Numbered from the stretch's first letter, positions 12,273-45,606 are shown. The stretch is 50,207 nucleotides of DNA from Candidatus Undinarchaeota archaeon (GCA_964449215.1 CAYVAH010000002.1:1-50207); one strand, 5' to 3'. Program-made: numbers and translations. Notes: generated from the letters alone by a model not told the origin.

Positions 12273-12632
12273 GTGAAAGCCCTGGATTTGGGGCACCACC
12301 GACCGGAAAAAACCTTCATAACCTTTCTGGAAAGTGTCCGACTGGAACCTGAAGAACTCAACAGGCTCTCCATGGAAAAAATCGTGGAATACTTGCAGGA
12401 CTTTCGTGAGAAACCACGTGTCGAAAAGCTGAGCTATATCAGGTATGTAGTCAGGGAGTGTAGCAAAAGGGGATATCTGAACAAAGAATGCCTGAGAGCC
12501 CTTAAGCCCACGATAGAAGAGGCTGCCAGAGTCGAGGACGGCTACCTCGATATTGACAGGGCTGTGGAGCTCATGGAAGAACTCCTGCGGTCACCCGTGC
12601 TTTCCAAGTACGCACCATGGAAAAGATACTGA
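12273..12632 (+). CDS. hypothetical protein
   Basis: 119 aa helical-looking ORF after an AT-rich promoter region. Confidence 0.6.
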   Translation: MKALDLGHHRPEKTFITFLESVRLEPEELNRLSMEKIVEYLQDFREKPRVEKLSYIRYVVRECSKRGYLNKECLRALKPTIEEAARVEDGYLDIDRAVELMEELLRSPVLSKYAPWKRY

Positions 12633-12695
12633 TTTATCGACAACTGACTAACAAATATACGACAAACTATAAATAATGGCCCGAAAATTCTTCAC

Positions 12696-13883
12696 ATGGT
12701 CGATACAAAAGACGTGGAAGTCCTCCATGAGGATTTTGTGGAATATCATCCCAGCTGGGGAACAGAACCCATCAAGATAAACAGAAAAAAGGCCAGGGTG
12801 AACGTGGATGGTGTCGAATTATACTTTGAACTCCACTCGGCTGGAGAATCCGACAAAACCGTCCTTCTGGTTCATGGGTTGAGCTCTATAAACAAAACCT
12901 GGGATGAACTCCTGAGAAACGAACTCGCCGCAGCCGGTTACACAGTTGTGATACCCGACCTGCCGAACCACGGCAAGTCCGGATCAATGGACCAAAAAGG
13001 GCTGACAATTTACGACTACCCTGAGAAACTCCACAACAAGATGGAAAAGCTCGGGATCAAGGACTGGGTCACGGCATCCAGTTCGGGATCGGCACCATTC
13101 ATCATGGCGATGGCGGAGAAATACCCGGACAAGGTCAAGGGAGTCTTCAGCTCAGCACCTGTGTGCAAGGTTCGAGAGATTCCCGGGTTGAAATATCTGG
13201 GTTATCACATCACCAAAAATTTTCTTTGCCTGATAGACTTCTTCTGCAGGGACAAGTTCAACATAATGGAAAAAATAAAGAACTACCAAGCGAAGCACAG
13301 GTCCCAAACTGAAGCTGAAAAACGTCTATACCTCCACAGCGCAAAATATGACGCAAGCCGCGGCAAGAACCCCACATACAAACTGACGAACAAGGCATTG
13401 ATACGAACAATAAAGGGGTGGCACAAATATAAGCCAAAGGTTCCTGAAGAGGTGCCCTTCGCAATTCAGTTCTCTGAAAAGGACACTATTGCAAAGGTAA
13501 AGAAATTCACCCTTGTGAAAAATGCCATACTCCGAAAACTCTCCAGGTATGGCCTCGCAAAGCCACCGAAGGAAAAAACAGTTTTGGACCTTTTGGAAAA
13601 GCAAATAGAAAAATACACCGGGATTCACGGGGGGAGCAGACCCCATGTCTACCTGGTAACAGGAGAGGTGGGGCACCACATACAGAAGGAAGCACCGATA
13701 GCCTTCGCAGACAACATCAGGCACTTCATGGAGCAAATAGGTTATCTGCCAGAACAGTATAATGCAAAGAACAAAGGTGTCAGGGAGCTCGAAGGGCTAT
13801 ACCTCAGAGAGCACTTGGAGGATGAAGTGGGAAGAGTCGCTAGGAGGACAAGACACGAAGAATACAAAGCGATGGTGAGCTAA
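12696..13883 (+). CDS. alpha/beta hydrolase fold protein
   Basis: VLLVHGLSS, VIPDLPNHGKS, nucleophile elbow ASSSG, C-terminal GHHIQKEAP. Confidence 0.85.
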   Translation: MVDTKDVEVLHEDFVEYHPSWGTEPIKINRKKARVNVDGVELYFELHSAGESDKTVLLVHGLSSINKTWDELLRNELAAAGYTVVIPDLPNHGKSGSMDQKGLTIYDYPEKLHNKMEKLGIKDWVTASSSGSAPFIMAMAEKYPDKVKGVFSSAPVCKVREIPGLKYLGYHITKNFLCLIDFFCRDKFNIMEKIKNYQAKHRSQTEAEKRLYLHSAKYDASRGKNPTYKLTNKALIRTIKGWHKYKPKVPEEVPFAIQFSEKDTIAKVKKFTLVKNAILRKLSRYGLAKPPKEKTVLDLLEKQIEKYTGIHGGSRPHVYLVTGEVGHHIQKEAPIAFADNIRHFMEQIGYLPEQYNAKNKGVRELEGLYLREHLEDEVGRVARRTRHEEYKAMVS

Positions 13884-13942: not shown

Positions 13943-13992
13943 GGGTGCCGGAGGCACCCCTGTTTTTTGCCAGCTTTTTTACAAAAAAGCTG
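13943..13992. terminator. hairpin + T-tract followed by a second inverted repeat (possible bidirectional terminator)
   Basis: GGGTGCC-GGA-GGCACCC (13943-13959) then TGTTTTTT; CAGCTTTTTT-AC-AAAAAAGCTG (13971-13992); lies between the convergent hydrolase and tRNA-Glu. Confidence 0.6.
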
Positions 13993-14065
13993 CCCCAAGC
14001 GGGATTTGAACCCGCGTCTCGGGATTGAGAGTCCCGAATCCTTGGCCGGACTAGACGATTGGGGC
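13991..14065 (-). tRNA. tRNA-Glu(CTC)
   Basis: GCCCCAA...TTGGGGC-A acceptor stem, CGGGA-CTCTCAA-TCCCG anticodon arm, GGTTCAAATC T arm; no encoded CCA. Confidence 0.95.
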
Positions 14066-14580: not shown

Positions 14581-14626
14581 CTTAAATTTATAATTGGGTG
14601 AAGGAAGGTTCTAAAGGTGTGTTCGG

Positions 14627-15163
14627 ATGTTTGAAATTGCAACGATGAGGCAAAATGTCAGGGTCCCCCCTGCAATCTGGAGAAAGGACATAAAGAGGGG
14701 GGTGAAGAGAGCCCTCTCCGAGCTTGAAGGCAAAGTTTCCAAGGCACACGGGATACTGCTGGCAGTCCTGAATGTGAAAACTGTCGGGGAGGGCAGGATA
14801 CTGCCGGGAGATGGTGCTGTTTACTATCCGGCAGTGTTTGAAGCCCTCATATTCCGGCCCGAACTTAATGAAGTGGTGGACAGCGAGGTCACGGACATGA
14901 CAGAATTCGGAGCCTTCCTGAGGGTCGGTGCCCTTGACGGCCTGGTGCACGTGAGCCAGGTCTCGGACGACTTTTTCAGTTACAGCAAGGAAGGGGTGAT
15001 CCAGGGAAAGAAAAGCAAGAAGGTCCTGAAGGTCGGGGACAAGGTCCGTGCCAGGATAATCAGCATAAGTTACAAGGCAGAGCCCGCCAAGCTCGGGTTG
15101 ACCATGCGCCAGCCCGGGCTCGGGAAGTGGGAATGGCTGGAGGAGGAGAGAAGTGGCAAGTAA
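14627..15163 (+). CDS. rpo7: RNA polymerase subunit Rpo7 (E')
   Basis: VRVPP, GEGRILPGDGAVYY, FGAFLRVGALDGLVHVSQV (S1 domain), KLGLTMRQPGLGKWEW. Confidence 0.97.
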   Translation: MFEIATMRQNVRVPPAIWRKDIKRGVKRALSELEGKVSKAHGILLAVLNVKTVGEGRILPGDGAVYYPAVFEALIFRPELNEVVDSEVTDMTEFGAFLRVGALDGLVHVSQVSDDFFSYSKEGVIQGKKSKKVLKVGDKVRARIISISYKAEPAKLGLTMRQPGLGKWEWLEEERSGK

Positions 15164-15341
15164 GAAGGTCTGCAGGAACTGCAGGGTGTTTGTCAGTGGG
15201 GATGCCTGCCCTATCTGTGGAGGAAAGGACTTCAGTTCGACCTGGGCAGGAATTGCAATAATAATTGATCCGACAAGCTCCGAGGTTGCGAAAAAGATGG
15301 GAGTTGATCTCCCCGGAAAATATGCTCTGAAGGTGAGATGA
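15153..15341 (+). CDS. spt4: transcription elongation factor Spt4 (RpoE'')
   Basis: CRNC...CPICG zinc ribbon, [19 protein letters not shown]. Confidence 0.96.
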   Translation: MASKKVCRNCRVFVSGDACPICGGKDFSSTWAGIAIIIDPTSSEVAKKMGVDLPGKYALKVR

Positions 15342-15691
15342 TGGAACTGAAAATAATCGAAGACAGGAAGAACCCCCTTCTTGAGAGGAGGGAGGTCAGG
15401 TTTCAGGTAACACATGAAGGAAAGCCGACACCACCAAAATATGAGGTGGCGGAAAAGCTTGCCGCGAAGCTCAACGCAAAAACCGAACTTATGGTAATAG
15501 AGCATTATACCACACAGTTCGGGAAGAACGTAAGCAACGGCATCTGCCTGATATACAAGAACGAGAAGGCAATGATTCGCGCAGAACCGACCAAGCTGGT
15601 GAACCCAAAGAAAAGACTGGGGTTAAAGGAAAAAGCCAGGGAGAAAGAGGAGGCGAAAGAAGGTGAAGCACAAGCCGAGCAAAAAGAGTAG
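15338..15691 (+). CDS. rps24e: 30S ribosomal protein S24e
   Basis: [27 protein letters not shown]; position in the rpoE operon. Confidence 0.95.
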
Positions 15692-17189: not shown

Positions 17190-17596
17190 TTTTTCTCCTC
17201 CCTCAGAACCATCAACACGCTCGCACGCCTGGAACGGACGGACACCCTTCCGAGCGACTTCGCACCAAGAGGCCGCTTGTGCCTGCCCCTGTAAACCTCC
17301 ACCATGGAAATGCGAAGCTTGTCCTCATCAGCACCGAGGTACCGGGCATTGGCAAGGGCATTATCCAGGAGCTTCAGGAAGTTCCGGGCAACCTTCACAG
17401 GACAACGGCTCGGCTTCCCCCGGTGGTGTGGAACCTCCTTGTTGTGCCTCCTCAACACCACCAGCTCCTGCTGGGCAGCCACCGCCTCAAGGAACTTCCT
17501 CGCCCTCTCAACAGGCATCCCCTTTATGGCTGCAGCTACCTCCCTCGAGTATTTCGGGGACATATTGACATTCCACAGTCTCGCCTTGGCTTCCAT
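17186..17596 (-). CDS. rpl22: 50S ribosomal protein L22
   Basis: MSPKYSREVAAAIKGM, VVLRRHNKEVPH, LLDNALANA. Confidence 0.94.
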   Translation of the reverse strand: MEAKARLWNVNMSPKYSREVAAAIKGMPVERARKFLEAVAAQQELVVLRRHNKEVPHHRGKPSRCPVKVARNFLKLLDNALANARYLGADEDKLRISMVEVYRGRHKRPLGAKSLGRVSVRSRRASVLMVLREEKK

Positions 17597-17602
17597 ATCA
17601 CA

Positions 17603-18001
17603 TCACTTCAGCGGTATGAACTTGCTGCTCCTTGTCGCTCCGACACCGGGGGCACTGTGCTGAACCCTCTTCCGGGTGCGGGCGAACTCGCCGAGATAGT
17701 GTCCGAGCTTCTCCGCATCCACCTTCACAGGCACATACTCCTTCCCGGCATGAACCATTATCGTCAGGCCGAGCATCTCCGGGACTATGGGCATGTCCCT
17801 GCAGTGGGTTTTCAGGGGCTTCGTTTCCCCCTTCTTCTTGGCCGCCCTTATCCTTTCAAGCAATCTCTTCTGATAGGGGGTCAATCCTCTCTTGAGCGCC
17901 CTGCGAATCCTCGCAGGGGCGACCCTGGCAAAATCCTCCAGGCTCATATTCGCCAGAGCCTCCTCCGACAGCCCCTTGTAATTGAACTTCTTCACCATCA
18001 C
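17603..18001 (-). CDS. rps19: 30S ribosomal protein S19
   Basis: FNYKG, PARIRRALKRG, KTHCRDMPIVPEM, GHYLGEF, PGVGATRSSKFIPLK. Confidence 0.97.
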   Translation of the reverse strand: MMVKKFNYKGLSEEALANMSLEDFARVAPARIRRALKRGLTPYQKRLLERIRAAKKKGETKPLKTHCRDMPIVPEMLGLTIMVHAGKEYVPVKVDAEKLGHYLGEFARTRKRVQHSAPGVGATRSSKFIPLK

Positions 18002-18717
18002 TTTCGCCTCTTCCTTCCGGTTCTCCTGGCAGCAATATAACCAACCTTCCTGCCGGGCGGCGCGTTCCTCGGGGAGGTCTGCGGCTTGCCAGCATGCCTG
18101 TGTTTCCTGCCTCCCCCGAATGGATGCTCAAAAGCGTTCATGCTGCTGGCGGAGACACGGGGCCAATACCTGTGCTTGGCCTTCATTATGTGAAACATCT
18201 TCCCCGCCTTGAGTATTGGCTTTTCCCGGATACCCGTCCCGGCCACAGTGCCAACAATCGCCCTGCACTCCGGATGGAGAAGCTTTATCTTCCCGGACGG
18301 CAGTTTAACACGAATCCTGTTCTCGTCCTTACCCATCACTATCGCAGAACCACCCGCCCCCCTGACAAGTTTTCCACCGTCCCCCGGAACCAGCTCAATG
18401 CAAAACACCCTTTCACCCTCAGGAACATTCTTCAAAGGAACAACATTTCCGGGGATGGCTGGAGCTTCCTCACCGGCTTCAACCACCTGACCAACAGAGA
18501 CCCCCGTAGCTGCAGGAACGACGAACACATCCTCTTCGGTCTGCACAACCGCCAGCGGTGCCGTCCTGGATGCATCCCTGATGAGTTCCACGAGGACTCC
18601 CCTTCCCGAGAAGCCCTTGAAACTGGAGCGAGGGCTATACCTGTGCCTGGGACTGCGCCATGTCGGCGCCCCCTTTCCCCTCCTTTGCTGGATAAGTGGT
18701 TTACCCATATGCATCAC
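17998..18717 (-). CDS. rpl2: 50S ribosomal protein L2
   Basis: QRRGKG, IELVPGDGGKLVRGAG, WPRVSASSMNAFEHPFGGG, PPGRKVGYIAARRTG. Confidence 0.97.
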   Translation of the reverse strand: MMHMGKPLIQQRRGKGAPTWRSPRHRYSPRSSFKGFSGRGVLVELIRDASRTAPLAVVQTEEDVFVVPAATGVSVGQVVEAGEEAPAIPGNVVPLKNVPEGERVFCIELVPGDGGKLVRGAGGSAIVMGKDENRIRVKLPSGKIKLLHPECRAIVGTVAGTGIREKPILKAGKMFHIMKAKHRYWPRVSASSMNAFEHPFGGGRKHRHAGKPQTSPRNAPPGRKVGYIAARRTGRKRRK

Positions 18718-18983
18718 AGTAACCCGAGGTTGGTAGCAACCTCCACAGCGCTATAATCCGGCCGCAGCTTTATATAGGCTTTCTTGACACCCTTGGTGGT
18801 TATCTCGGTATTCACCCGTTCCACCTTCACCTTGAACATCGCCTCGAAGGCTTCTCTCACCTTCTGCTTGTCGGCCCTCCGGTCCACCACAAACACGACC
18901 TTGTTCTGGTCAAGGAGCCTTATGGCTTTCTCAGTCCCCACGGGGTGGAGCAAAACACTTGTGGGATCATTTCTTTCTGACAT
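18714..18983 (-). CDS. rpl23: 50S ribosomal protein L23
   Basis: [33 protein letters not shown]. Confidence 0.96.
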
Positions 18984-19125
18984 TTTTCATCCTCCGGGAC
19001 TTTCCAAATCCGCAGGAACCGCACTTCCCCTTTCGGAGGTTAAAGCTATGCTTGCCGCATCTCCTGCAGATGCCGTGCGTCCTGCCGCTCGACCTCTTAC
19101 CGAAGGAAGGGGTTCCCTTGCTCAT
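18967..19125 (-). CDS. rpl37e: 50S ribosomal protein L37e
   Basis: Manual translation: [52 protein letters not shown]; follows lsm as in many archaea. Confidence 0.96.
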
Positions 19126-19130
19126 TTCAA

Positions 19131-19358
19131 TCACTTAGACGGTATTATCAGGACTATGGTGTCGCCGCGCACCATCACTCTACCGAGCTTGCGGCTGACC
19201 TCACCATCCTTCAACTCTTCAGCGTCATCCAGAACGACATTCAAGTGAATATCGAAAGCGAGAAGTTTTCCCCTCACCGTGTTGCCGTTTTTGAGCTCAA
19301 CGACTACCAGACTGTCTTTAGCCTCGTTTAAGGCGTCCAAAGGTCTCTCAATTGCCAT
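19131..19358 (-). CDS. lsm: Sm-like (Lsm/SmAP1) RNA-binding protein
   Basis: [14 protein letters not shown]...[14 protein letters not shown] (Sm1), [11 protein letters not shown] (Sm2). Confidence 0.96.
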
Positions 19359-19457
19359 TCATATCACCTACGGATAGCTCCGTTGCGCTTTTTTAAACTT
19401 TGTCCTCTCAAAGCCCGCAGAGCAAAGATTTTTTAATCGCTTGGCAGAACTACGCCT

Positions 19458-19856
19458 ATGGCTATAGTTCACACAAAGGACCTGAAGAAACCCACCGGTG
19501 GACGTAGAAGACGCCACCGCAAGAAGAAAAAGGCAGACCTTGGAAGGCCGTTTGTCCCGGTAACGGTGGGGGAAGAGACCCGCAAGAACATAAGGACACG
19601 CGGGGGAAACAGGAAGGTCAGGATGCTGAAAGCAGGAATGGCAAACCTCGCCACGGGGAAGAAGGTCCAGAAGGTAAAAATAATAAGGGTTGTTGAAAAT
19701 CCGTGTAATCCTTTCTTCGTCAGGAGAAACATAGTCACCAAGGGTTCCGTGATTGAGACGGATAGAGGCTATGCCCGTGTAACTTCCAGGCCCGGCCAGG
19801 ACGGGCAGGTCAGCGCCGTGCTGCTGAAGGACTACACCCCCACCCGAAAAAAATAA
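19458..19856 (+). CDS. rps8e: 30S ribosomal protein S8e
   Basis: KKPTGGRRR, IRTRGGNRK, NIVTKGSVIETDRGYARVTSRPGQDG. Confidence 0.97.
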   Translation: MAIVHTKDLKKPTGGRRRRHRKKKKADLGRPFVPVTVGEETRKNIRTRGGNRKVRMLKAGMANLATGKKVQKVKIIRVVENPCNPFFVRRNIVTKGSVIETDRGYARVTSRPGQDGQVSAVLLKDYTPTRKK

Positions 19857-19932: not shown

Positions 19933-21966
19933 GTGGAGACCGTTGTATCGGCAAAGCGGCTCGACCGGGAAAAGGTTTTTGACCGTGTCGAGTCCTTTGT
20001 AAGGGACGTGCTGCTGGAAGACGTCCTGAAGGCCGTTTCCCATGGCGAAAAATCGCTAATCGTGAATTTCACAGAGCTCGACAGGTATGACTACGAGCTG
20101 AGCGATGAACTCGTTGCCAACGCAGAGGAAGTCCTGAAAGCCTTCGAGGAAGCGATAGATGACCTCGGACTTTCTGATAAATCCATCAAGGTCCGGTTCC
20201 GGAACCTCCCAAGGTCAACCTGGTTCAAGATAAAGGACCTTCGGAGCGAACAGCTCGGGAAGTTCGTGACAGTCGAGGGGATAATAAGGCAGGCTTCGGA
20301 GGTCCGACCGGAAGTTGCGAAGACTGAGTGGGAATGCGCGGCCTGCCAGGAAAGAATCAGCATGTTCCAGACAGGACTCAACCTCAAGAAACCAAAGGAG
20401 TGCCCCAATTTCACCTGCAAGAACCGGAAGGATTTCATTCTCGTCGGAAAGGAGTTTGGAGACGTGCAGAGGGTTGTAATAGAGGAGAACCCCGAGAATC
20501 TCGAGGGCTCCGAACAGCCATCCAGACTCAATGTGATTTTGCGGCATGACCTTGTTGACCCGACCTTCCGCAGGAACCTCATGCCCGGGAACATAATCAG
20601 GGTGAGTGGAATACTCAAGGAAATGTCACTGAAGCAGGGGGATAGCGGAAAAAGGTATGACATATTCATGGAAGCAAATCACCTGGAATCTCTCTACCAG
20701 GAGTTCCAGGACATTGAGATAGAGCCAGAGGATGAAAAAAGGATAAAAGAAATCGCCTCGGCCGACCCGTGGAAACTCGTGGTGGATTCGATAGCCCCGA
20801 GCATCTATGGCCACAACGAAATAAAGAAAGCGATAGCCCTGCAGATGTTTGGAGGTGTCAGGAAGCAACGACCGGATGGAACCTGGAGCCGTGGGGACAT
20901 CCACCTGCTCCTTGTCGGTGACCCGGGAGCCGGAAAAAGCCAGATACTCAAATACGTGGCGGGAATAGCACCGAAAAGCAGGTATGTATCCGGGAAGGGT
21001 GCGAGTGCTGTCGGACTGACGGCAACGGTTGTGAAGGACGAGTTCCTCAAAGGGTGGACCCTCGAAGCAGGAGCGATAGTGCTCGCGAGCGGGGGGATTG
21101 CCTGCGTGGACGAGATTGACAAGATAAGCAAAGAAGACGTATTTGCCCTGCACGAAGCCATGGAACAGCAGAGCATAACCATAGCAAAGGCAAACATATT
21201 CGCCACACTCCGTTCCGAGACAAGCATACTCTCAGCAGCAAACCCGAAGTTCGGGCGGTTTGACCTCAACACCCCCATAGCCGAGCAGATTTCCCTGCCG
21301 GAAACAATACTCAGCAGGTTTGACCTGATTTTCCCCGTAAAGGACATACCAAATCCAAAGATAGACGAGGCACTTGCCAGCCACATACTTTCCCTCCACA
21401 AGAGTCCCGAAATTTCAAAGCCCGCAATACCTCCCAAGGACATGAGGAAGTACATCGCCTATGCCAAAAGGAACATCCACCCCAAGATAACTGATGATGC
21501 CCTGAACAAGATAAAGGAGTTCTTCGTGGACCTGAGACGGGAGTATTCAGACGGCTCCTCGGTCCCCATAAGCCCCAGACAGCTTGAAGCACTGGTGAGG
21601 ATGACGGAAGCATCCGCCCGATTGAGGCTGAGCCCCGTAGCAACGGTGGAGGACGCTGCAAAAGCAATCGACCTTATGAAGTACACGCTGTACCAGCTCG
21701 CCTATGACACCGAAACGGGAAGACTCGACATAGACCGCATGGAAACTGCCACACCATCAAGCAAGAGAAGCAAGATAATGACGGTGCTTGAGATACTCCG
21801 GGAGCTTGAAAAGGAATTCGGGAAGGAAATACCCAAGGCCAAGGTAATCGAAGAGGCGGAGGCAAGAAAGCTCCAGATAGACGAGGTTGAGCGCGTGCTG
21901 GACGACCTTCGGGCCAAGGGCTACATAATAGAACCAAAATCCGGAATAATTGAGAGGGTGGAGTGA
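19933..21966 (+). CDS. mcm: replicative helicase MCM
   Basis: Zn motif CAAC...CPNFTC, Walker A GDPGAGKS, LEAGAIVLASGGIACVDEIDK, LSRFDL, SPRQLE, C-terminal winged helix. Confidence 0.97.
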   Translation: METVVSAKRLDREKVFDRVESFVRDVLLEDVLKAVSHGEKSLIVNFTELDRYDYELSDELVANAEEVLKAFEEAIDDLGLSDKSIKVRFRNLPRSTWFKIKDLRSEQLGKFVTVEGIIRQASEVRPEVAKTEWECAACQERISMFQTGLNLKKPKECPNFTCKNRKDFILVGKEFGDVQRVVIEENPENLEGSEQPSRLNVILRHDLVDPTFRRNLMPGNIIRVSGILKEMSLKQGDSGKRYDIFMEANHLESLYQEFQDIEIEPEDEKRIKEIASADPWKLVVDSIAPSIYGHNEIKKAIALQMFGGVRKQRPDGTWSRGDIHLLLVGDPGAGKSQILKYVAGIAPKSRYVSGKGASAVGLTATVVKDEFLKGWTLEAGAIVLASGGIACVDEIDKISKEDVFALHEAMEQQSITIAKANIFATLRSETSILSAANPKFGRFDLNTPIAEQISLPETILSRFDLIFPVKDIPNPKIDEALASHILSLHKSPEISKPAIPPKDMRKYIAYAKRNIHPKITDDALNKIKEFFVDLRREYSDGSSVPISPRQLEALVRMTEASARLRLSPVATVEDAAKAIDLMKYTLYQLAYDTETGRLDIDRMETATPSSKRSKIMTVLEILRELEKEFGKEIPKAKVIEEAEARKLQIDEVERVLDDLRAKGYIIEPKSGIIERVE

Positions 21967-22821
21967 CTACTCAAGCAGGTCTATTGAATCAACTATGCCG
22001 TCACCATCTTCATCGAACCCCTGAACAACTATGAAACCGTTCTCCGCAGCTCTGTTAAAATGCTTCCTCAAACCGAGAATGGCAGCACGGGTCCCGGAAG
22101 AAGTCCGCCCGGCCACCTCCATTATCTTTTTCCCCGGGTCCTCCGGGTTTCCGGTCACAGCCACGAATCCACACCAGTCCTCAAAATACTCCTTCGTTGG
22201 ACTCTTTATGGAACGGTCAACGAATCTCACAGGCATAAAGTTGTTGAACCTCGCCGCCACCGTATTGACCACAGGCCCACCAAGGATTATCAAGTTGCCC
22301 TTCGCCCTTTTCAGCTCAATGTCCGTGTAGATGAAAGGCCACGGGATTGTCCCCATACGGCCGAAGAATGACGCAATTTCCGCCGCAAGATGTCCATCCC
22401 TGGCCCTGGCACGGTTCGGCCCGTGGGGATCGGGAGAGCCAACAACTATGTGAGCATTCACAACCCCCCCAACCACAAAAGGGGGGTAATCACTGTAAGC
22501 AACAACCTCACCACCCAGGGAACCGGGCATTATGTACCCGAACGCAGTTGCCCTCGGGGCGACCAGCTTTGCCTTCCCCCCACGCATCTGCCTTTCCTCA
22601 ACCTCCTGAAGGACGCCGGCCCTCTTCAGGACCTTTATGTGGTAGTAAACCCTCTGTTCAATCATCCCAAGCTTTCTGGCTATTTCCACGGGGTACATCG
22701 GCTTTTCCAGGGTCATCTTCATTATTTTCTCCCTGATCGGGTGTGAAACTGCCTTGAGAAAAGCGGGGTTCCTGGAAACCACGGCACTGAACATGACGGA
22801 GTCCTTGACAATGGCGTCCAT
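21967..22821 (-). CDS. ArsR-type HTH regulator with C-terminal GGPxVN domain
   Basis: AVSHPIREKIMKM...MYPVEIARKLGMIEQRVYYHIKVL; GSPDPHGP; NLIILGGPVVN. Confidence 0.8.
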   Translation of the reverse strand: MDAIVKDSVMFSAVVSRNPAFLKAVSHPIREKIMKMTLEKPMYPVEIARKLGMIEQRVYYHIKVLKRAGVLQEVEERQMRGGKAKLVAPRATAFGYIMPGSLGGEVVAYSDYPPFVVGGVVNAHIVVGSPDPHGPNRARARDGHLAAEIASFFGRMGTIPWPFIYTDIELKRAKGNLIILGGPVVNTVAARFNNFMPVRFVDRSIKSPTKEYFEDWCGFVAVTGNPEDPGKKIMEVAGRTSSGTRAAILGLRKHFNRAAENGFIVVQGFDEDGDGIVDSIDLLE

Positions 22822-22911
22822 TAAAACATAAATTTGAATGCTTTAAAAAACTTATTTTTGTCATCGCTCCGGGCAGAAATGCTTAAAACACAGAGGGGTG
22901 GATAAGTGCAT

Positions 22912-23017
22912 GGGCCCGTAGCTCAGCCGGTCAGAGCGCCGGTCTTATATGGCCGCCTCTGGCATAGGGACGACCTAAGAAAGCCGGAGGTCCGGGGTTC
23001 GAGTCCCCGCGGGCCCA
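22912..23017 (+). tRNA. tRNA-Ile(TAT) with 32-nt intron at 37/38 (22950-22981)
   Basis: GGGCCCG/CGGGCCC-A acceptor stem, GCTC/GAGC D stem, CCGGT-CT-TAT-A|intron|A-GCCGG, GGTTCGAGTC T arm; BHB with CTTA/TAAG central helix. Confidence 0.92.
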
Positions 23018-23071
23018 GCCAAATTAAGACAAATGTCGAGTAACAATTTTATACTCGACTAACCAACCCTG

Positions 23072-26620: not shown

Positions 26621-26702
26621 GCCGGGGTGGCGGAGCCTGGTAACGCGCTGGACTCGAAATCCAGTCCCTCTGGGATCAGGGGTTCAAATCCCCTCCCCGG
26701 CG
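26621..26702 (+). tRNA. tRNA-Ser(CGA)
   Basis: GCCGGGG/CCCCGGC-G acceptor stem, CTGGA-CTCGAAA-TCCAG anticodon arm, long variable arm, GGTTCAAATC. Confidence 0.95.
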
Positions 26703-26757
26703 CTGATAGCTCCATAACCGACCACAAAAAAAGAAAGAAGAAATAGGACCGTGAGCA

Positions 26758-28763: not shown

Positions 28764-30386
28764 ATGGAAGCAGGAAATCGCGAAATTCTGCTAAATAAGC
28801 AAGCAGCGAGTAGTAAAACCTTATTGCTATCAAGAAATGGAGTATTTTTGTTTCTATTTGGGAATGGTGCCTTTGGCAGTAAGTGGTGTGGGCTCTGGCA
28901 AAACGACACGAAGTTTCTGGACTACTTTGCCCTGCGCGTGAACGACGAGTGGCTTTCCCCTGAGAACTTCCACTCGCTGAAATACAACGGGATAACGGCA
29001 GAGCTGAATTATAACGCCGGCACGAAAGTGAGGGAGCGACTCTGCGTCACGGAAGGCGGGCTCGTTGTGGAGCTCCAGACCCGTGGAAGGTCGGAGTTCG
29101 ACCTGGAAATGGGAGTGAACATCCGCAAGAGGGACGAGGACATAAGGGATGAAGGCTACAAGGTGTTCAAAAGAAAGGGCATCCACGTCGGGAACTCCCT
29201 CGGCAGGCTCAGTATCCAAGCCAAAGGGGTATTCACACCAATAAACCAGTACGAGGTGCACTTCCCCGGCAGGTACGCGCAGGAAGTGGGATACGACTGG
29301 AACGAATCGCCGCAAAAGAAGTTCGTCCCGGGGATACTCTCCATGAAAGGAAGAAAAGTGGAAATAAAGTTTTCCCTCGCACCGGGCGTCGGGTCTTTCA
29401 ACCTCGCGAAGAAATCGGCCAGGAGCTATGTGAGAAAGCACAAGGCAGTGGGATGGGAAATGGCAGCTTCCCTCTCCCACTTCATCACCAGGCTGGAGGG
29501 AAAAACAGCCTTCCTGGCGGGGTTCCCGTACTTCAACGAGTTCTGGACCCGGGACTTCCTGTGGATGGTGAAACCCTTGCTGGAGAAGGGATACCTTGAA
29601 GAGGTCAAGGAGGCCGTCGGGCTGATAGCCAAGCACCAGCTCCCGGACGGCAGCATCCCAAATGTCGTGGGCGTTCCAGAAACCAACGCAGACTCCACAC
29701 CGCTGTGGATAATCGCCGCGGACGAGCTGGTGAAAGAAGGAGCGAAGGTTGACGTAAAACACCTGAAAGCGGCTCTCGAATTCGGCAGGAAACACCTGAA
29801 GAGAGGTGTTGTCTGGCACCCCGAGGAGCTAACCTGGATGGACACCCTCTGGAGGCGAGGGGGCATCGAGATCCAGTCCCTCTGGGCCGAGGCATTCGAA
29901 CGCGGAAGCGAGCTGATCGACCCGAAGCTTGAGGACCTGTCAGCAGAGATATGGGAAACCGTGGAAATCGACTATCTGACGCACGAGGTGTTCAGGGACT
30001 CCCTAGAAGGACCATACAGGTTCACCGCCAACACCCTGGTCCCTTTGGTGTTCGGCCAGGCCTCCCTTGGCCAACGAAAGAAGACCCTGAAAAGAGCCAG
30101 AAAGGAACTGCTCACCCCTGATGGGGTGAAGGCAGTCAGCAAGAGCGAGAGCTCAACCCCTGAAAAATATCACGAGAGGGTCTGGGGGATAACGACATAC
30201 TGGGGTTCCGTGGCCTTCGGCAAATCAGAAGGCAAAAAGATACTTGACAGCTGGTCCAAACACATGAACTCGCGAACCCTCTACGGGATGCCTGAGACTG
30301 TTTCCAAAGGCAAGCCCATGGGGGCAACGCATCAGTTGTGGTCAACAGCCTTCCTGCCATCCGCAGGGAGAGGAGGTCGAAAATGA
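28764..30386 (+). CDS. glycogen debranching enzyme (amylo-alpha-1,6-glucosidase family)
   Basis: AGFPYFNEFWTRD, NADSTPLWIIA, LTWMDT, IEIQSLW, C-terminal HQLWS. Confidence 0.85.
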   Translation: MEAGNREILLNKQAASSKTLLLSRNGVFLFLFGNGAFGSKWCGLWQNDTKFLDYFALRVNDEWLSPENFHSLKYNGITAELNYNAGTKVRERLCVTEGGLVVELQTRGRSEFDLEMGVNIRKRDEDIRDEGYKVFKRKGIHVGNSLGRLSIQAKGVFTPINQYEVHFPGRYAQEVGYDWNESPQKKFVPGILSMKGRKVEIKFSLAPGVGSFNLAKKSARSYVRKHKAVGWEMAASLSHFITRLEGKTAFLAGFPYFNEFWTRDFLWMVKPLLEKGYLEEVKEAVGLIAKHQLPDGSIPNVVGVPETNADSTPLWIIAADELVKEGAKVDVKHLKAALEFGRKHLKRGVVWHPEELTWMDTLWRRGGIEIQSLWAEAFERGSELIDPKLEDLSAEIWETVEIDYLTHEVFRDSLEGPYRFTANTLVPLVFGQASLGQRKKTLKRARKELLTPDGVKAVSKSESSTPEKYHERVWGITTYWGSVAFGKSEGKKILDSWSKHMNSRTLYGMPETVSKGKPMGATHQLWSTAFLPSAGRGGRK

Positions 30387-31522
30387 AAATAGCAGTGCTG
30401 GCAAGTGAGCTGTGGCCCGTATTCAGTGGTGGGCTCGGAGTTGCAGTGTATGAGCTCGTAAGAGCACTTGAGAACCGCCGCAACGGCATGAGCTTCAAGG
30501 TGGTAATACCCAAGCTCAACTGGAAGGGTCATCTCCGCTCTCCTGTGGTTGAAACCCCCACGGAACTCGGTTATTCCGTCTACTTTTACAAGGGGGAACC
30601 AATACTCGGGTGGGAATCAATAAAAGAGATACAGGGCTTCAACCTCGCACTTGTTCAGGCCTGCGGGAAAAACACCGACATAGTCCACGCAAATGACTGG
30701 ATGACCGTGCCCGCAGGAGTTATGCTCAAGAAAAGGGGGAAGAAGTTCCTGTTCCACATTCACAGCACGGAATATGACCGGACCAACTTCAATCCGAGGA
30801 AGTGGGTCGTTGACATAGAAAAGATGGGGGCGGAAATGGCGGACCTTGTCGTGGCAAACAGCTTCAGGACGAAAAAGCAACTGGTGGAACTCTACGGCAT
30901 AGACCCGAAAAAGATTGAGGTCATATACAACGGGACAAATATTGAAAGGTTTTCCGGACCCATCAACAAGAACCTGAAGAAGCCCGGGGATAAGGTGGCA
31001 CTCTTTGTCGGGAGGCTCACAATCCAGAAGGGGGTATGGCATCTCCTCCAGGCTGCCAAGCAGGTCGTTGAAAAGGAACCGAAGGCGAAGTTCGTCATAG
31101 TCGGTTCGGGCCCGGACATGCCCTACCTCATAGACACTGCAATCAAGCTCGGTATAGAAAAAAACGTCATATTCACCGGGAAGCTGAGCGAGGAGGAGCT
31201 GATCGCGGCCTACAGGATGTGTGACGTTTTTGTCATGCCCTCAGTCAATGAACCCTTCGGGATAGTTGCACTGGAAGCACTTGCATCCGGGAAGCCGGTG
31301 ATACTCAGCAAGACATCCGGGGTCGGGGAGGTCATAGACCACTGCTTCAAGGTAGATTACTGGGACACCAACCTCCTCGCCTCGCGCATATTGGAGGTCT
31401 TTCACTACAAGGAGCTGAAAAAGGCCATGGGGAGAAATGGCTCGACCGAAGCAAGAAAGCTGAGCTGGGACAGCTCAGCCCGGAAGTTTGAAGAGGCATA
31501 CAGGAGGGTCATGAGTGCGTAA
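30383..31522 (+). CDS. GT4 glycosyltransferase (glycogen-associated)
   Basis: ELWPVFSGGLG, VHANDWMT, HIHSTEYDR, FVGRLTIQKG, PSVNEPFGIVALEA; ATGA overlap with the debranching enzyme gene. Confidence 0.92.
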   Translation: MKIAVLASELWPVFSGGLGVAVYELVRALENRRNGMSFKVVIPKLNWKGHLRSPVVETPTELGYSVYFYKGEPILGWESIKEIQGFNLALVQACGKNTDIVHANDWMTVPAGVMLKKRGKKFLFHIHSTEYDRTNFNPRKWVVDIEKMGAEMADLVVANSFRTKKQLVELYGIDPKKIEVIYNGTNIERFSGPINKNLKKPGDKVALFVGRLTIQKGVWHLLQAAKQVVEKEPKAKFVIVGSGPDMPYLIDTAIKLGIEKNVIFTGKLSEEELIAAYRMCDVFVMPSVNEPFGIVALEALASGKPVILSKTSGVGEVIDHCFKVDYWDTNLLASRILEVFHYKELKKAMGRNGSTEARKLSWDSSARKFEEAYRRVMSA

Positions 31523-32708
31523 GGTCGCGTTCTGCTCGGTGCTCCACCAGCCGTGGAGAATATCAAAATACAGCTTCTTTGACATAGGTCACCACAAGAA
31601 CTATTTTGACAACCACCTGAACAAACGTCTCTTTGAAAGGGTGGCCCGGAAAAGCTACCTCCCAACCCTGCGGATAATGAAGGAGCTCTGCGAAGACACA
31701 GAATTCCGGGTCAATCTCTCCATGACGGGAACGTTCCTCCAGCAAGCGGAAAAATACAAACCGGCTGTGATAAAGGCACTCAAGGAACTTCACGCAACAG
31801 GAAAGATGGAACCGATAGCTGAGACATTCTACCACTCACTGGCATTCCTCATATCTGAAAAGGAGTTCAGAGAACAGGTGAGACTTCACCTCCAGAAAAT
31901 GAAGGAACTCTTCGGCGTGAGACCAAAGCTGTTCCGCAACACCGAGTCGTTCTACAATGATGATGTTGCCAAAGCGGTGGAGAAGCTCCGGTTCAAAGGG
32001 GTTATCACGGAGGGAAGCGAAAAGCTACTCGGCTGGAGAAGCCCGGGGTATCCCTACAGAGCTGATGGCACCAGGCTCCAGCTGTTTATGAGGAACTACC
32101 GTCTGAGCGATGACATAGCCTTCAGGTTCTCCGCCCGCAGCTGGGAAGGCTACCCGCTAACAGCCGACAAGTATGCGGCCTGGCTCGGGGCGATGCCAAA
32201 CCCGTTCACCGTTATATTCATAGATTTCGAAACCTTCGGGGAGCACCAATGGGAGGATACTGGAATATTCGAGTTCCTCAGGCATCTTCCCCGGCACGCC
32301 AACTCCAGCTCCGGAATAGAATGGTCAAATCTCTCAGACCTTCTGACAAACAGATTCGTGGACTCCATCCACTCCCCACAGTTCGTCTCCTGGGCAGACT
32401 GCGACAGGGACCTGAGCGCCTGGCTGGGAAACGAGATGCAGAACTCTGCCTTCAACTTTCTCAAGGAACTTGAAGCACCCGTAAAAGCCACCCGGGACAA
32501 GCATCTTATTGAAGTCTGGAGGTGGCTGACCACAAGCGACCACCTTTACTACATGAGCACAAAGTTCGCCGGCGACGAGGAAGTCCACAGCTACTTCAGG
32601 TGCGAGGCTTACAGCAGTCCCTATGACGCATTCACAAACTACATGAACATCCTCCAGGACCTCAAGTCGCTGGTCGATGAGCTCGGAAAACGAAAGAAGA
32701 AAAAGTAA
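31515..32708 (+). CDS. GH57 alpha-amylase/branching-type glycoside hydrolase
   Basis: HQP, SYLP, ETFYHSL, FRNTE, RNYRLSDDIAFRFS, DFETFGEHQW, SWAD, DHLYYM. Confidence 0.93.
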   Translation: MRKVAFCSVLHQPWRISKYSFFDIGHHKNYFDNHLNKRLFERVARKSYLPTLRIMKELCEDTEFRVNLSMTGTFLQQAEKYKPAVIKALKELHATGKMEPIAETFYHSLAFLISEKEFREQVRLHLQKMKELFGVRPKLFRNTESFYNDDVAKAVEKLRFKGVITEGSEKLLGWRSPGYPYRADGTRLQLFMRNYRLSDDIAFRFSARSWEGYPLTADKYAAWLGAMPNPFTVIFIDFETFGEHQWEDTGIFEFLRHLPRHANSSSGIEWSNLSDLLTNRFVDSIHSPQFVSWADCDRDLSAWLGNEMQNSAFNFLKELEAPVKATRDKHLIEVWRWLTTSDHLYYMSTKFAGDEEVHSYFRCEAYSSPYDAFTNYMNILQDLKSLVDELGKRKKKK

Positions 32709-32731
32709 GGGCTTTATACGAACCACAGCTA

Positions 32732-33373
32732 ATGAAGCCAATGAAGGGGCTTGTGGTATTTGACCTCGAAGGTGTCCTTGTCGAAGGAGAACTACTGGTG
32801 GAGATCGCAAGACTTGCCGGCATCAACCACATCAACAGGTTAACGGAAGCGGGGCTGCGGGGTGAGCTCCCCTGGGAGAAAAGCTTCAACGAGAGAATGA
32901 AGCTTTTGAAAGGTGTCCACAGGGAGGTCGTGAAAAAGGCCGGGGAGAGTCTGAAGGTAAACGAAGAAGCGGAGAATGTTGTCCGGGAGCTCAAAAGGAT
33001 GGGCTTCAAGGTATATGTTGTCAGCGGTGGCTTCGAAGGGACCGCAAGTGCCGTGAAGGAGCGGCTTGGCCTGGACGGCTATGTTGTCAACAGGATGGTG
33101 TTCCGGGATCAGTCGCTGGATGGCTGGGAACTGAAAGTGCGTGACAAAGGAAGGATTGTCCGGGAACTGAAAGAAAAACTCAGCCCCCCTGTAACCATAA
33201 CTGTGGGCGATGGGGCGAACGACATTCCCATGTTCAAAGAGGGTATCGGGGTGGCATACAGGGCCAAGGGAACGGCACGAGAGCACGCCAAGTTCAGCAT
33301 AGACAGACTCGAAGAGCTCCTGAAAATCGCCGCCAGCTTCACACGCGCCCCAGGGCCAGCTCATAAGCCTTGA
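32732..33373 (+). CDS. serB: HAD phosphatase, phosphoserine phosphatase (SerB) type
   Basis: VVFDLEGVL (DxD variant), VVSGGF, K, VGDGANDIPM. Confidence 0.8.
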   Translation: MKPMKGLVVFDLEGVLVEGELLVEIARLAGINHINRLTEAGLRGELPWEKSFNERMKLLKGVHREVVKKAGESLKVNEEAENVVRELKRMGFKVYVVSGGFEGTASAVKERLGLDGYVVNRMVFRDQSLDGWELKVRDKGRIVRELKEKLSPPVTITVGDGANDIPMFKEGIGVAYRAKGTAREHAKFSIDRLEELLKIAASFTRAPGPAHKP

Positions 33374-35054
33374 GGTACCTGTCGCCGAGCTTATCCCAGG
33401 TGAAGTGGTCCTTCACTGCCTTGTGAGCTGCTATCTCGAGGGATATGCGCACCTCCTTGCTGGACTTGACGAAGTTCTCAATTATCCCCGCAACCCTCGG
33501 AACCGCCGACTCGGAAATGTCAGCAACATATATTCCCTTGCTGCCAAGCCGCTCCGCAGCCATACCGAAACCGGCAGTCCTTGTAGTGACGGCAGTGCTA
33601 AGGAAAGCCGCTGCTTCCATCGGCGTGTAACCCCACGGCTCATACCTGCTAAGAAAAACGCCCATACTTGCAGACGTAAGGAAATCCCGGTACCTGAGCC
33701 CGAGAAGTTCGTCCTGCTTGTTCAAATAGATGGGATAATAGACAACCTTGACTCTGTCTTCCGGGCGGTTCAGCAACCCGTTGCTCCTCAACCTTTGCAT
33801 TATGGCGTCCTTATCGGAACCACTGGAGAGCTGAAAGGCACAGAGCGGTGGGTTCTTCCCCCGGCGGGTTCCGAGTTGATGTCTCATCCTCTCCAGGTCC
33901 ATCATCAGTTCATCAAGCTCCTTCTTTGCCACCCCCTCTTCCGGACCAGCCATGAAAAGGTTCTTGCTTATTCTGTCCACATCTTCCTTCAGGACCTCCT
34001 TCATACGGCGATAGAAAGCAAAGTTCTGTATGACTTCATCCTTGACTCCCAGAGTCCCGGCCGGCACGAGTATGAAGGACAGGAACCACCTCCCGTATTC
34101 CTCCTTCTTCAGCCGCTCGTTCAACACACCGAGCGCATCTATGAAAATGTCATATCCCTTATTAAGAAACTCGTATCTCCCGGCAGTATATACCACCGGA
34201 TAATCGCTTAGCTCGAGAGGGTAGTAAGGAAAAAAATAGGAGCGGACGAAATCGTCTATCTTCTGGCGGAACATCACCTTGTCGCTCATCAGCTTTGGCA
34301 GCTCCGGGATAGAATGGTCATCCAGGGCGTTGTAGGTTATCAGGTCCGGCGCACGACCCAGAACCTTCTCCGCTTCCTTCCCCGTGCCCTCGCTGACCGT
34401 CGTGAACACCGTGGCGAGTCGGGCCGCCGCCTTTTCAGTGAGATGCTTCGCGGTAACGTTGTGCTTCCTCGCCCCGGAATCCGGGTCTGGAGGGACCCTC
34501 CCTCCCGTGGCCCGCCCAAGGACAGTAGCATGAGTGGTGAAGACCGTCGGAAGCTTCGCAGAGGCGGAATCCAGGTAGAAAAGCACACCCGCAGAAAGCC
34601 ACTCATGAAGCTGAACCACATGCTCACCAGGCATTGCCCGGGAAAGTTCCCCAAGGAGCATCCCGGCACCGTAGCTCCACGCCAGCGGCTCATTATAGTC
34701 AAAGCCTGAACCCAGGGAGTCAATCCTGTATCTCTCCCAGAGTTCCGCCTTTATTTCATCCACCCTGTTCAGCATCCCCCTGGCATCCACAAGGATTATG
34801 GGAGTGTCTCCCGCATTCACCCAGGAACCATAACGGAACTCCAGCCCCTCTTCTCTCAGCTTGGAAAACACATCTGAAAAAGGGGGAGGCGGAATTCTGT
34901 CAATAACCTCCGTTCTTTTTGGGTTCAGGAAACCGATTGTGAAATATCTGCCATCAAACTTCTTTTTCATAAAGGGCGCCTTTGAGGTTATGACGGTCCA
35001 TATGCCCCCCACCTTGTTCCCGCACTCAAAACTGACCTCCCAGAGAACTCTCAC
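33339..35054 (-). CDS. GT3 family glycogen synthase
   Basis: EVSFECGNKVGGIWTVITSK, HEWL, FTTHATVLGR, AGRYEFLNKGYD, SRYEPWGYTPME. Confidence 0.93.
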   Translation of the reverse strand: MRVLWEVSFECGNKVGGIWTVITSKAPFMKKKFDGRYFTIGFLNPKRTEVIDRIPPPPFSDVFSKLREEGLEFRYGSWVNAGDTPIILVDARGMLNRVDEIKAELWERYRIDSLGSGFDYNEPLAWSYGAGMLLGELSRAMPGEHVVQLHEWLSAGVLFYLDSASAKLPTVFTTHATVLGRATGGRVPPDPDSGARKHNVTAKHLTEKAAARLATVFTTVSEGTGKEAEKVLGRAPDLITYNALDDHSIPELPKLMSDKVMFRQKIDDFVRSYFFPYYPLELSDYPVVYTAGRYEFLNKGYDIFIDALGVLNERLKKEEYGRWFLSFILVPAGTLGVKDEVIQNFAFYRRMKEVLKEDVDRISKNLFMAGPEEGVAKKELDELMMDLERMRHQLGTRRGKNPPLCAFQLSSGSDKDAIMQRLRSNGLLNRPEDRVKVVYYPIYLNKQDELLGLRYRDFLTSASMGVFLSRYEPWGYTPMEAAAFLSTAVTTRTAGFGMAAERLGSKGIYVADISESAVPRVAGIIENFVKSSKEVRISLEIAAHKAVKDHFTWDKLGDRYLKAYELALGRV

Positions 35055-36001
35055 CGGACCACCCTCCTGAACTCCGCGGCGTATCTCTCCGGGGAAAGAA
35101 CGTTGATATACATGTCATTCCCGAGCTCAAAGCCACCGAATTCACTGAGCCGGGGATATATCTCGATGTGAAAATGGAAGTCTCTGCCCCTCGGAGCCTG
35201 GTGAACTGCAAGGTTATATGGCACGCCTGGGAAGAGCCTGAAGATGGCCCCAACAGTCGCGCGAAGAATTGCCGCCAGATCCTCGAGCTCCTCCCTCCTG
35301 AGCTCCGGAAGTGAACGGACATGCCTCTTGGCAATTATCCAGGTCTCCCCCGGAAAAATCGAAGCGAAGGGCGCAAGCGCAAAGAATCCATTGTTTTCCA
35401 TCAGAACGCGACTGCCCTCTTCCCCTTCCTCCCGGATTATCGTCTCAAAAGGGCACTCACCGAAAAGATGGGTATATTCGTCAATCTTTGCCCTTTCCTT
35501 GTAAATGGTTCCGGGAACCACAGGGAGAGCAATCAACTGGGAGTGTATATGGGCTATGCTTGCCCCGGAAGCCGCCCCGTCATTCCGGAAAATGCTGACA
35601 TATTTTATTCTCTTGTCAGCCATATGAGTTTTAGTTCGCTGGGCATAGACCCCAAGCAGTTCCACAAGATGCTCCTCGGTGAGCTGATCAAACCGGAGAT
35701 GCTCAGGGTGGTCAATTATCACCTCATGAAACCCAAAGCCACCCCTGCTGTGGAAAAACCTTTCACGACCGGAGAGGGGCTCATCTGGGTCCAGAGCGGG
35801 AAACTTGTTGGCAATAACAGCTATCCTCCACGGCTCCCCCACCCTGTAAAGTATCGGGGAAGAGAGGTTCTCCGGACAGAAAGGGCAGCGCCCATGCTGT
35901 ATGTGGACCTCCTTTATCTCAAAATCCTCCGGCCTTTTCGACCTTCCCGTGGAAACAATCACCCAGCGATCGAGAAAATAATGCCTGCGGATTTCATTCA
36001 C
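35051..36001 (-). CDS. galT: galactose-1-phosphate uridylyltransferase family (GalT / HIT)
   Basis: EIRRHYFLDRWVI, RSKRP, CPFC, NKFPAL, HEVII, GASIAHIHSQL (HxHxQ), HFHIEI. Confidence 0.92.
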   Translation of the reverse strand: MNEIRRHYFLDRWVIVSTGRSKRPEDFEIKEVHIQHGRCPFCPENLSSPILYRVGEPWRIAVIANKFPALDPDEPLSGRERFFHSRGGFGFHEVIIDHPEHLRFDQLTEEHLVELLGVYAQRTKTHMADKRIKYVSIFRNDGAASGASIAHIHSQLIALPVVPGTIYKERAKIDEYTHLFGECPFETIIREEGEEGSRVLMENNGFFALAPFASIFPGETWIIAKRHVRSLPELRREELEDLAAILRATVGAIFRLFPGVPYNLAVHQAPRGRDFHFHIEIYPRLSEFGGFELGNDMYINVLSPERYAAEFRRVVR

Positions 36002-36049
36002 ATTAAAGTGAAATTAAAATCTAATTAAAGCTTATGATACACCTATATA

Positions 36050-44726: not shown

Positions 44727-44944
44727 AATTCCCGGAATATGACGCCTTTGAAAAAATGATTATGGCTGTGATAGGCATCGTTACACTGCTGGGGTTCTAC
44801 TACGCCAGGACCATATATCGGATGGCACAGGAGATGGTCTATGAGCCCAACGTGATTCTCGGCGTGCTTCTGTTCATCATCCTTGAAGTCATGCTGCTCA
44901 ACGCCGTGCTCCTGTACTCAATGCTGAAGGGTCGGTCAAAATGA
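44723..44944 (+). CDS. small 2-TM membrane protein between nop5 and fibrillarin
   Basis: 73 aa, 4-nt overlaps with both neighbours. Confidence 0.65.
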   Translation: MKFPEYDAFEKMIMAVIGIVTLLGFYYARTIYRMAQEMVYEPNVILGVLLFIILEVMLLNAVLLYSMLKGRSK

Positions 44945-45573: not shown

Positions 45574-45606
45574 ACAACTATTATATTTTCTGCACTCTAA
45601 CATACT

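Follow-up and report, generated by a model that had tools for sequence, protein, structure and literature searches.

A tRNA-Ile(UAU) gene with a canonical bulge-helix-bulge intron in an Altiarchaeota-affiliated, DPANN-type archaeon from hydrothermal vents

The window, by which we mean the whole stretch of 50,207 nucleotides that was analyzed, carries a tRNA gene on its plus strand at 22912-23017. Rfam model RF00005 matches this interval at full length (1-71) with 61.9 bits (E = 4e-11), leaving a 33-nt insert unaligned inside the anticodon loop, and our own tRNA covariance model (R1) scores it at 62.9 bits. Removal of a 32-nt intron at 22950..22981 (+) yields a 74-nt tRNA with all four arms and the loop CU-UAU-AA. 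Together with the motif scan described below, these results bear out a sequence-only reading of the same stretch, which had proposed a tRNA-Ile with a UAU anticodon and a canonical bulge-helix-bulge (BHB) intron whose excision leaves this loop. The mature elements comprise the acceptor stem GGGCCCG/CGGGCCC with A73, the D stem GCUC/GAGC, the anticodon stem CCGGU (22939-43) / GCCGG (22983-87), which includes a U31-G39 wobble, and the T arm CGGGG-UUCGAGU-CCCCG. The 5' exon (22912..22949, +), delimited by the Rfam tRNA alignment and our dissection, spans tRNA positions 1-37 and contains the acceptor 5' strand, the D arm, the anticodon-stem 5' strand and C32 U33 U34 A35 U36 A37. The anticodon TAT (U34 A35 U36) lies at 22946..22948 (+), as found by Rfam, dissection, metagenome contigs and five syntenic relatives. 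Dissection, motif scan and orthologous introns with equal ends place the intron at the canonical 37/38 position, and the 3' exon (22982..23017, +; sequence, Rfam and dissection) supplies positions 38-73. The gene does not encode CCA, the bases after 23017 being GCC.

The tRNA body has Ile-type features, with A73, A37/A38, C4-G69 and U12-A23 all present. The determinants A73, A37/A38, C4-G69, U12-A23 and C29-G41 belong to the identity set of the E. coli IleRS; the 29-41 pair is G29-C41 here, versus C29-G41 in that set. The GGGCCCG acceptor by itself is not specific for Ile, as tRNA-Val genes in the scanned loci have it too. ARAGORN with default settings missed the tRNA-Ile(UAU) gene in the window and returned two other, intronless tRNAs, Glu-CUC at 13991-14065 (-) and Ser-CGA at 26621-26703 (+). 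Its intron mode did call a tRNA-Ile(tat), but gave it an intron of 13 nt, mispaired the anticodon stem and created a spurious long variable arm, a parse that we dropped in favor of the BHB one; a tRNA-Trp from the same mode, with a 2157-nt intron (17412-19661), spans ribosomal protein genes and is a false positive. Annotation pipelines that miss or mis-parse such a gene in this manner may consequently call AUA undecodable in MAGs of this kind.

Upstream of the gene lies a putative BRE/TATA promoter element, AGAAATGCTTAAAA (22876..22888, +), with its TATA center ~27 nt from tRNA position 1. A motif of the type AAAnnn(C/T)TTAAA(A/T) recurs at -31 to -24 of the tRNA in five of six loci, namely the window and four of its syntenic relatives (L101, L123, L124 and L125). 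This is the site expected for the archaeal BRE/TATA promoter of a nearly leaderless tRNA transcript. Downstream, an 8-bp perfect inverted repeat, GTCGAGTA/TACTCGAC around ACAATTTTA, can be read at 23035..23059 (+). Its T-run is a candidate terminator of the tRNA, and its TTTTATA is a candidate TATA box of the glycosyltransferase gene that starts with ATG at 23075; both functions are assigned from sequence.

The precursor was searched for arrangements of helix, 3-nt bulge, 4-bp helix, 3-nt bulge and helix. This explicit search gave one strong hBHBh' candidate in the anticodon arm (22939..22987, +), with cuts at 37/38. Helix h (22939-43/22983-87) is the 5-bp anticodon stem, U31-G39 included, and is followed by the central helix CUUA/UAAG (22944-47/22976-79). 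The 5' bulge UAU (22948-50) has its predicted cut after 22949 (A37), and the 3' bulge AAA (22980-82) after 22981, before A38 (22982). Helix h' (22951-59/22967-75) begins with two G-C pairs and has seven of its nine first positions paired. Helix and bulges are exactly those claimed beforehand, a CTTA/TAAG helix with TAT and AAA bulges. Splicing in another register, which would change the anticodon, had been raised as a point to check; the anticodon arm offers no comparable alternative BHB, and the UAU anticodon holds. The only other BHB-like candidate in the arm (22943-46/22967-70), with h and h' of two pairs each, would leave no tRNA and was rejected. Folding energies of the anticodon arm are -11.7 kcal/mol for the explicit BHB versus -15.8 kcal/mol for the minimum free energy (MFE) structure. 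Within the motif, U34 and A35 sit in the central helix, paired with the intron, and U36 sits in the bulge. Such anticodon-intron pairing follows from any canonical 37/38 BHB and hence says little in favor of a eukaryote-type psi-A-psi anticodon.

Comparison of 83 non-identical archaeal tRNA-Ile(UAU) genes supports the motif. Counted singly, the four pairs of the central helix are intact in 80, 80, 75 and 72 genes, U-A and U-G alternating, and 62 of the 83 have all four. The first h' pair is retained in 78 genes, and the second covaries (A-U in 27, G-C in 22, G-U in 15). Strong covariation is likewise found in the anticodon stem. Intron nucleotide 2 is a G in 82 of 83 genes, a conservation explained by the h' helix; introns of other tRNAs show it too, so that it is not Ile-specific.

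At its MFE (-55.3 kcal/mol), the naked precursor is predicted to form an alternative hairpin in place of cloverleaf and BHB. In this 13-bp structure (22930..22963, +), with the loop UUAUAU (22945-50), intron nucleotides 2-14 (22951-63) pair with 22930-44, that is, from the 3' strand of the D arm to the anticodon-stem 5' strand and C32. The duplex has an energy of -18.8 kcal/mol in the window, with z = -2.7 versus shuffled introns. In most of the 83 genes, complementarity between intron and 5' exon is greater than in shuffles, with a mean z of -1.6 and 43% of the genes below -2. The introns of two relatives (L123 and L124) match the 3' exon instead, and here CUUCCGG/CCGGAGG versus CUUUCGG/CCGGAAG represents a compensatory change. 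Column-wise mutual information between intron and D arm is weak (0.35 or less), with indels in the intron blurring the register, and tells less than the comparison with shuffles. The alternative hairpin may be a folding trap, a timing device or a by-product.

The sequence of the locus is well supported. Between 22800 and 23150 there are no differences in contigs of four independent hydrothermal-vent metagenome runs. The tRNA gene is 100% identical in two other public assemblies, and a third holds its first 55 nt before the contig ends. Position 22946, for which a C instead of a T had been considered, reads T in the assembled contigs of all four runs. The 3'-terminal 33 nt (22985-23017) are shared, with one mismatch, with commoner vent tRNAs such as a Val-CAC-like gene; as a result, read depth rises abruptly across the 3' exon, and short-read mapping there needs care.

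Syntenic tRNA-Ile(UAU) orthologues occur in five relatives (L101, L123, L124, L125 and L130). Gene order is kept in MAGs of Altiarchaeota, with ribosomal proteins, LSM, S8e, MCM and an HTH/S-layer-like gene, and in all five relatives a tRNA with the loop CUUAUA and an insert lies directly downstream of the latter. They share with the window the UAU anticodon, the central helix CUUA/UAAG, the bulges UA(U/A) and AAA, and an h' helix starting with G-C; only the central helix of L130 deviates, with UAGG and one U-G wobble. Their introns measure 26-41 nt and differ in the length and sequence of their interiors, while the splice ends are unchanged. Constant anticodons and splice sites alongside divergent intron interiors indicate purifying selection on the former, and with anticodon, splice sites and promoter motif all under selection, the gene is expected to be a working one. 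Conservation of anticodon and intron in five relatives thus speaks for a tRNA that does decode AUA, and against a chance occurrence.

Two further features of related loci may be recorded. In two Nanoarchaeota loci (L037 and L114), an MCM gene lies ~0.4-1 kb from a tRNA-Ile(UAU) gene, in an arrangement unlike that of the window (19933-23017); the proximity of the two genes in both groups may reflect ancient linkage or chance. In the Altiarchaeota-like relative L125, the tRNA-Ile(UAU) gene is separated by 2.3 kb from an Elp3-like radical-SAM gene (12363-13718; 451 aa; PF04055 and PF16199, an acetyltransferase domain not being listed), which could bear on U34 modification.

We placed the lineage through protein identity of the MCM and through synteny, not through deposited labels. 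By these measures, the host is an archaeon of hydrothermal vents with affinities to Altiarchaeota and other DPANN lineages. Among named sequences, the MCM comes closest, at 63-78% identity, to those of MAGs deposited as Candidatus Altiarchaeota archaeon, and below ~53% identity all named relatives are Nano-, Woese-, Aenigm- or other DPANN archaea. A protein that shares a 90%-identity sequence cluster with the glycogen synthase is labelled Thermococci archaeon, and the syntenic 2.1-kb contig L101 is labelled Undinarchaeota. Taxonomic labels thus conflict for clearly related sequences (Thermococci, Candidatus Altiarchaeota, Candidatus Undinarchaeota archaeon), and many DPANN-like binchicken MAGs carry the label uncultured Methanosarcinales. 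Altiarchaeota group with DPANN when phylogenies include DPANN, and their placement is debated (PMC6349945). A shared intron-containing tRNA-Ile(UAU) adds a small extra character joining Altiarchaeota-like archaea to DPANN.

The proteins encoded in the window include MCM, FEN1, SMC, Nop5, LonB, a class V FBP aldolase/phosphatase, TIM, an AspRS/AsnRS-type synthetase and argG/argH. Genes for endA, rtcB and IleRS do not occur within the 50 kb. A compact glycogen-metabolism cluster extends over 28764-38518, with GDE_C debranching-type, GT4/GT5 synthase-like, GH57, HAD, PF05693 glycogen synthase, GalT-like and PGM-like genes. The class V FBPase and TIM genes adjoin it, and the metabolism displayed is richer than in most DPANN genomes. 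Five ORFs of 170-417 aa, all on the minus strand (44839-46092, 14588-15505, 1557-2405, 2758-3570 and 3884-4396), have no Pfam/NCBIfam match at permissive thresholds and look like lineage-specific orphans.

AUA is heavily used in this genome segment. In 53 ORFs, which together take up 93% of the window, there are 395 ATA codons (25.6 per 1000 codons), or 46% of the Ile codons. ATA is the commonest of these, ahead of ATC and ATT, in agreement with the frequent ATA noted in the sequence-only reading. Among 46 ORFs of the 50-kb window, no Pfam/NCBIfam match to TiaS or to tRNA-modification genes was found, permissive thresholds included. Nor did ARAGORN, Rfam or our own covariance model detect a CAU tRNA in the window. 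The 417-aa orphan at 44839-46092 has the size of a TiaS and matches no family at all. Position 34 (22946) is T in every assembly and relative compared, where a TiaS substrate has C34, so this gene cannot be a TiaS substrate.

Of 167 archaeal genomes surveyed in 2018, those of N. equitans and K. cryptofilum alone had a tRNA-Ile(UAU) (PMC6000648), and tRNAscan-SE 2.0 names the genes of these two species Ile3 (PMC8450103). We scanned one genome per GTDB species with the pattern GGGCCCR-UAGCUYAG...CUUAUA, which requires a GGGCCC(R) acceptor, so that all counts are lower bounds. At least 119 loci were returned, at least 89 of them archaeal by title and at least 30 bacterial, the latter mainly CPR. 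The archaeal matches listed are mostly labelled as DPANN phyla (Woese-, Micr-, Nano-, Undin-, Aenigm-, Iain- and Pacearchaeota, Nanopusillaceae), and the matches listed also include one Thermoplasmata, one Methanobacteriota and many MAGs titled "uncultured Methanosarcinales". A restriction of UAU-type tRNA-Ile to few lineages, as presumed beforehand, therefore does not hold: the ARMAN genes have been known since 2011, and at least 89 further archaeal loci exist. As judged from these genes, a UAU anticodon with a 37/38 intron is the standard combination in DPANN-type archaea and ordinary for the lineage of the window. One contig labelled Candidatus Binatia bacterium (L057, DATILO010000086.1) carries an archaeal-type, intron-containing tRNA-Ile(UAU) beside Gly/Glu/Val tRNAs in a DPANN-like setting, and probably represents archaeal DNA that was wrongly binned with a bacterial MAG.

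To describe how consistently the intron is kept, we pooled 94 archaeal genes, consisting of the 89 scan loci listed and five from the lineage of the window that were missing from the scan results (the window, L123, L124, L125 and L130). Among these matches and members of the lineage, at least 90 of 94 have a 37/38 intron, a count drawn from related genomes and hence from phylogenetically non-independent samples. In 82 genes, an intron of 16-55 nt parses cleanly directly after A37; in eight more it is visible where our strict parser failed, and one gene runs off its contig. The remaining three, those of L006 (Thermoplasmata), L027 (Iainarchaeum) and L059, have no intron. The bacterial tRNA-Ile(UAU) genes among the matches listed lack introns, save that of the "Binatia" contig. 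As a baseline, a tRNA covariance model built from intronless tRNAs of the same loci was run on all archaeal loci. Of its Ile(UAU) matches, 80 of 83 are at least 89 nt long; of the other tRNAs in these loci (n = 98), 61 are 80 nt or shorter, two are long-arm Ser/Leu tRNAs and ~35 have an insert somewhere. The neighboring Gly-GCC, Glu-UUC and Val-UAC genes occur both with and without introns, whereas Ile(UAU) almost never occurs without one. Many archaeal tRNA-Ile(UAU) genes, e.g., L015, L017 and L021, carry a second intron in the T-loop. A search of the window for a box C/D-type guide against the anticodon/intron junction gave self-matches and one chance 9-mer in a coding gene.

Taken together, we consider it very probable that the gene encodes an AUA-decoding tRNA-Ile3(UAU) of an Altiarchaeota/DPANN-affiliated vent archaeon, most likely standing in for tRNA-Ile2(CAU) and TiaS. 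Archaeal tRNA biology and the ARMAN experiment described below suggest how it would work. The gene would be transcribed from its own BRE/TATA promoter as a nearly leaderless precursor, in which C32-A35 would pair with the 3' end of the intron to form the strict bulge-helix-bulge. The archaeal splicing endonuclease would cut after A37 (22949) and before A38 (22982), an RtcB-type ligase would join the halves, and CCA would be added. The mature 74-nt tRNA would then be charged by an archaeal/eukaryote-type IleRS and read AUA. On the same grounds, TiaS is expected to be absent. A search for metatranscriptome or tRNA-seq runs containing this organism returned none. Two observations speak against this scheme. 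The MFE of the naked precursor favors the alternative hairpin over cloverleaf and BHB. In addition, a haloarchaeal tRNA-Ile mutated to UAU gains cnm5U34, binds AUA > AUG > AUU and is poorly charged by the haloarchaeal IleRS (PMC3895270); poor charging and AUG binding of this mutant imply that a UAU tRNA needs co-adapted partners.

We give next to no probability to a dead gene, or to a tRNA-Ile2(CAU) gene in which T34 would be a mistake of sequencing or assembly. We found no point in support of either, the sequence is identical in the four runs and three other assemblies, T34 persists in relatives as distant as 63-78% MCM identity, and cloverleaf, BHB and promoter motif are all intact. If the genome instead kept tiaS and tRNA-Ile2(CAU), the UAU tRNA would be a second AUA decoder for an AUA-rich proteome, which would suit AUA being the most used Ile codon. 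However, in each archaeon examined the UAU tRNA goes without Ile2(CAU) (ARMAN-2/-4/-5, N. equitans, K. cryptofilum; PMC3239211, PMC8450103), TiaS is also absent from ARMAN (PMC3239211), and the 50-kb window holds no tiaS, so that we hold such a supplementary role to be decidedly improbable. Judged by analogy, with ARMAN, Nanoarchaeum and Korarchaeum as the models, replacement of tRNA-Ile2(CAU)/TiaS by the UAU tRNA is likelier than supplementation. Our searches for literature linking DPANN or Altiarchaeota with TiaS or agmatidine returned nothing relevant.

The distinction of AUA from AUG is a classic decoding problem, for which three solutions are known: lysidine, agmatidine, and psi-A-psi or inosine. 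Strict retention of the intron sharpens the question of U34 here. One account, to which we assign somewhat less than an even chance, leaves U34 unmodified or generically modified, with a co-evolved IleRS and ribosome and competition from elongator tRNA-Met blocking AUG misreading, and gives the intron no role in decoding. The tRNA-Ile2(UAU) of M. mobile indeed reads AUA and not AUG on its own ribosome with U34 unmodified (PMC3575796), AUG misdecoding by an intronless yeast tRNA-Ile(UAU) went undetected (PMC6582322), and three archaeal UAU genes have no intron. The same three genes count against a second account, in which the intron is kept for modification of the anticodon on the precursor, either psi34/psi36 or guide-directed Um34, limiting the tRNA to AUA and blocking generic U34 modification. 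What the first account leaves unexplained, and the second would explain, is intron retention far steadier than in neighboring tRNAs, at least 90 of 94 genes versus 61 of 98 neighbors without an intron; retention could, however, reflect shared ancestry, the genes being non-independent. Pairing of U34 and A35 with the intron corresponds to the double-stranded state on which yeast Pus1 depends to make psi34/psi36, and yeast tRNA-Ile(UAU) without its intron gains an aberrant ncm5U34 (PMC6582322). Archaeal tRNA-Trp introns, according to a citation within PMC6582322, serve wobble 2'-O-methylation. Avoiding the generic pathway would matter, since a UAU tRNA-Ile with cnm5U34 reads AUG too (PMC3895270). 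Conservation of the intron ends, on the other hand, is accounted for by the BHB itself, and the window, a few percent of a genome, contains no guide-like antisense element. On balance, we regard a modification role of the intron as a sensible proposal, but an unlikely one. If true, it would be the way in which TiaS-less archaea read AUA without misreading AUG, a eukaryote-like solution in DPANN and Korarchaeota.

Among known systems, the closest experimental evidence for splicing of such a precursor comes from ARMAN-2. ARMAN-2, -4 and -5 have a tRNA-Ile(UAU) with a 25-nt 37/38 intron in a strict hBHBh' motif, lack tRNA-Ile(CAU) and TiaS, and their pre-tRNA-Ile(UAU) is cleaved in vitro by their own endonuclease (Fujishima et al. 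2011; PMC3239211). The window gene resembles these Micrarchaeota/Parvarchaeota genes in its UAU anticodon, single 37/38 intron, strict hBHBh' and DPANN affiliation of the host. It differs in the length of the intron, 32 nt versus 25 nt, and in that splicing is predicted from sequence here. The lineages differ as well, the host of the window being Altiarchaeota-affiliated and vent-dwelling, with ~52% GC and a richer metabolism (glycogen, argG/H, class V FBPase). N. equitans and K. cryptofilum use a tRNA-Ile3(UAU) instead of Ile2 (PMC8450103, PMC6000648). The Korarchaeum UAU gene, like that of the window, has an intron, as do the two Nanoarchaeota loci L037 and L114, at 18 nt. Nanoarchaeum and Korarchaeum belong to other phyla, and Korarchaeum is not DPANN, so that its gain of UAU may be independent.

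The eukaryotic minor tRNA-Ile(UAU) shares with the window gene the UAU gene anticodon, the 37/38 intron and the anticodon-intron pairing in the precursor. Its anticodon is psi-A-psi and reads AUA only (PMC6582322), and yeast Pus1 makes psi34/psi36 on no form but the unspliced precursor, in which the anticodon is double-stranded (PMC6582322). In contrast to the window, eukaryotic introns are recognized by a ruler mechanism and not by a strict BHB. The canonical archaeal tRNA-Ile2(CAU) performs the same task, reading AUA and not AUG, on an Ile-type tRNA body (PMC3895270), but its wobble C is converted to agm2C by TiaS, whereas the window gene has U. In bacteria, Mycoplasma mobile has a tRNA-Ile2(UAU) with the same anticodon and has lost its C34-modifying enzyme (PMC3575796). 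This tRNA is intronless and is served by a bacterial-type IleRS, and its U34 is demonstrably unmodified; the case illustrates the need for co-adapted IleRS and ribosome (PMC3575796). Seen against these systems, the window gene is a further case of an already known gene type, in an Altiarchaeota-affiliated vent lineage. With it, that hydrothermal-vent lineage joins the archaea whose gene anticodon is a plain UAU, a solution that is common across DPANN-type archaea and not an oddity of two or three genomes.
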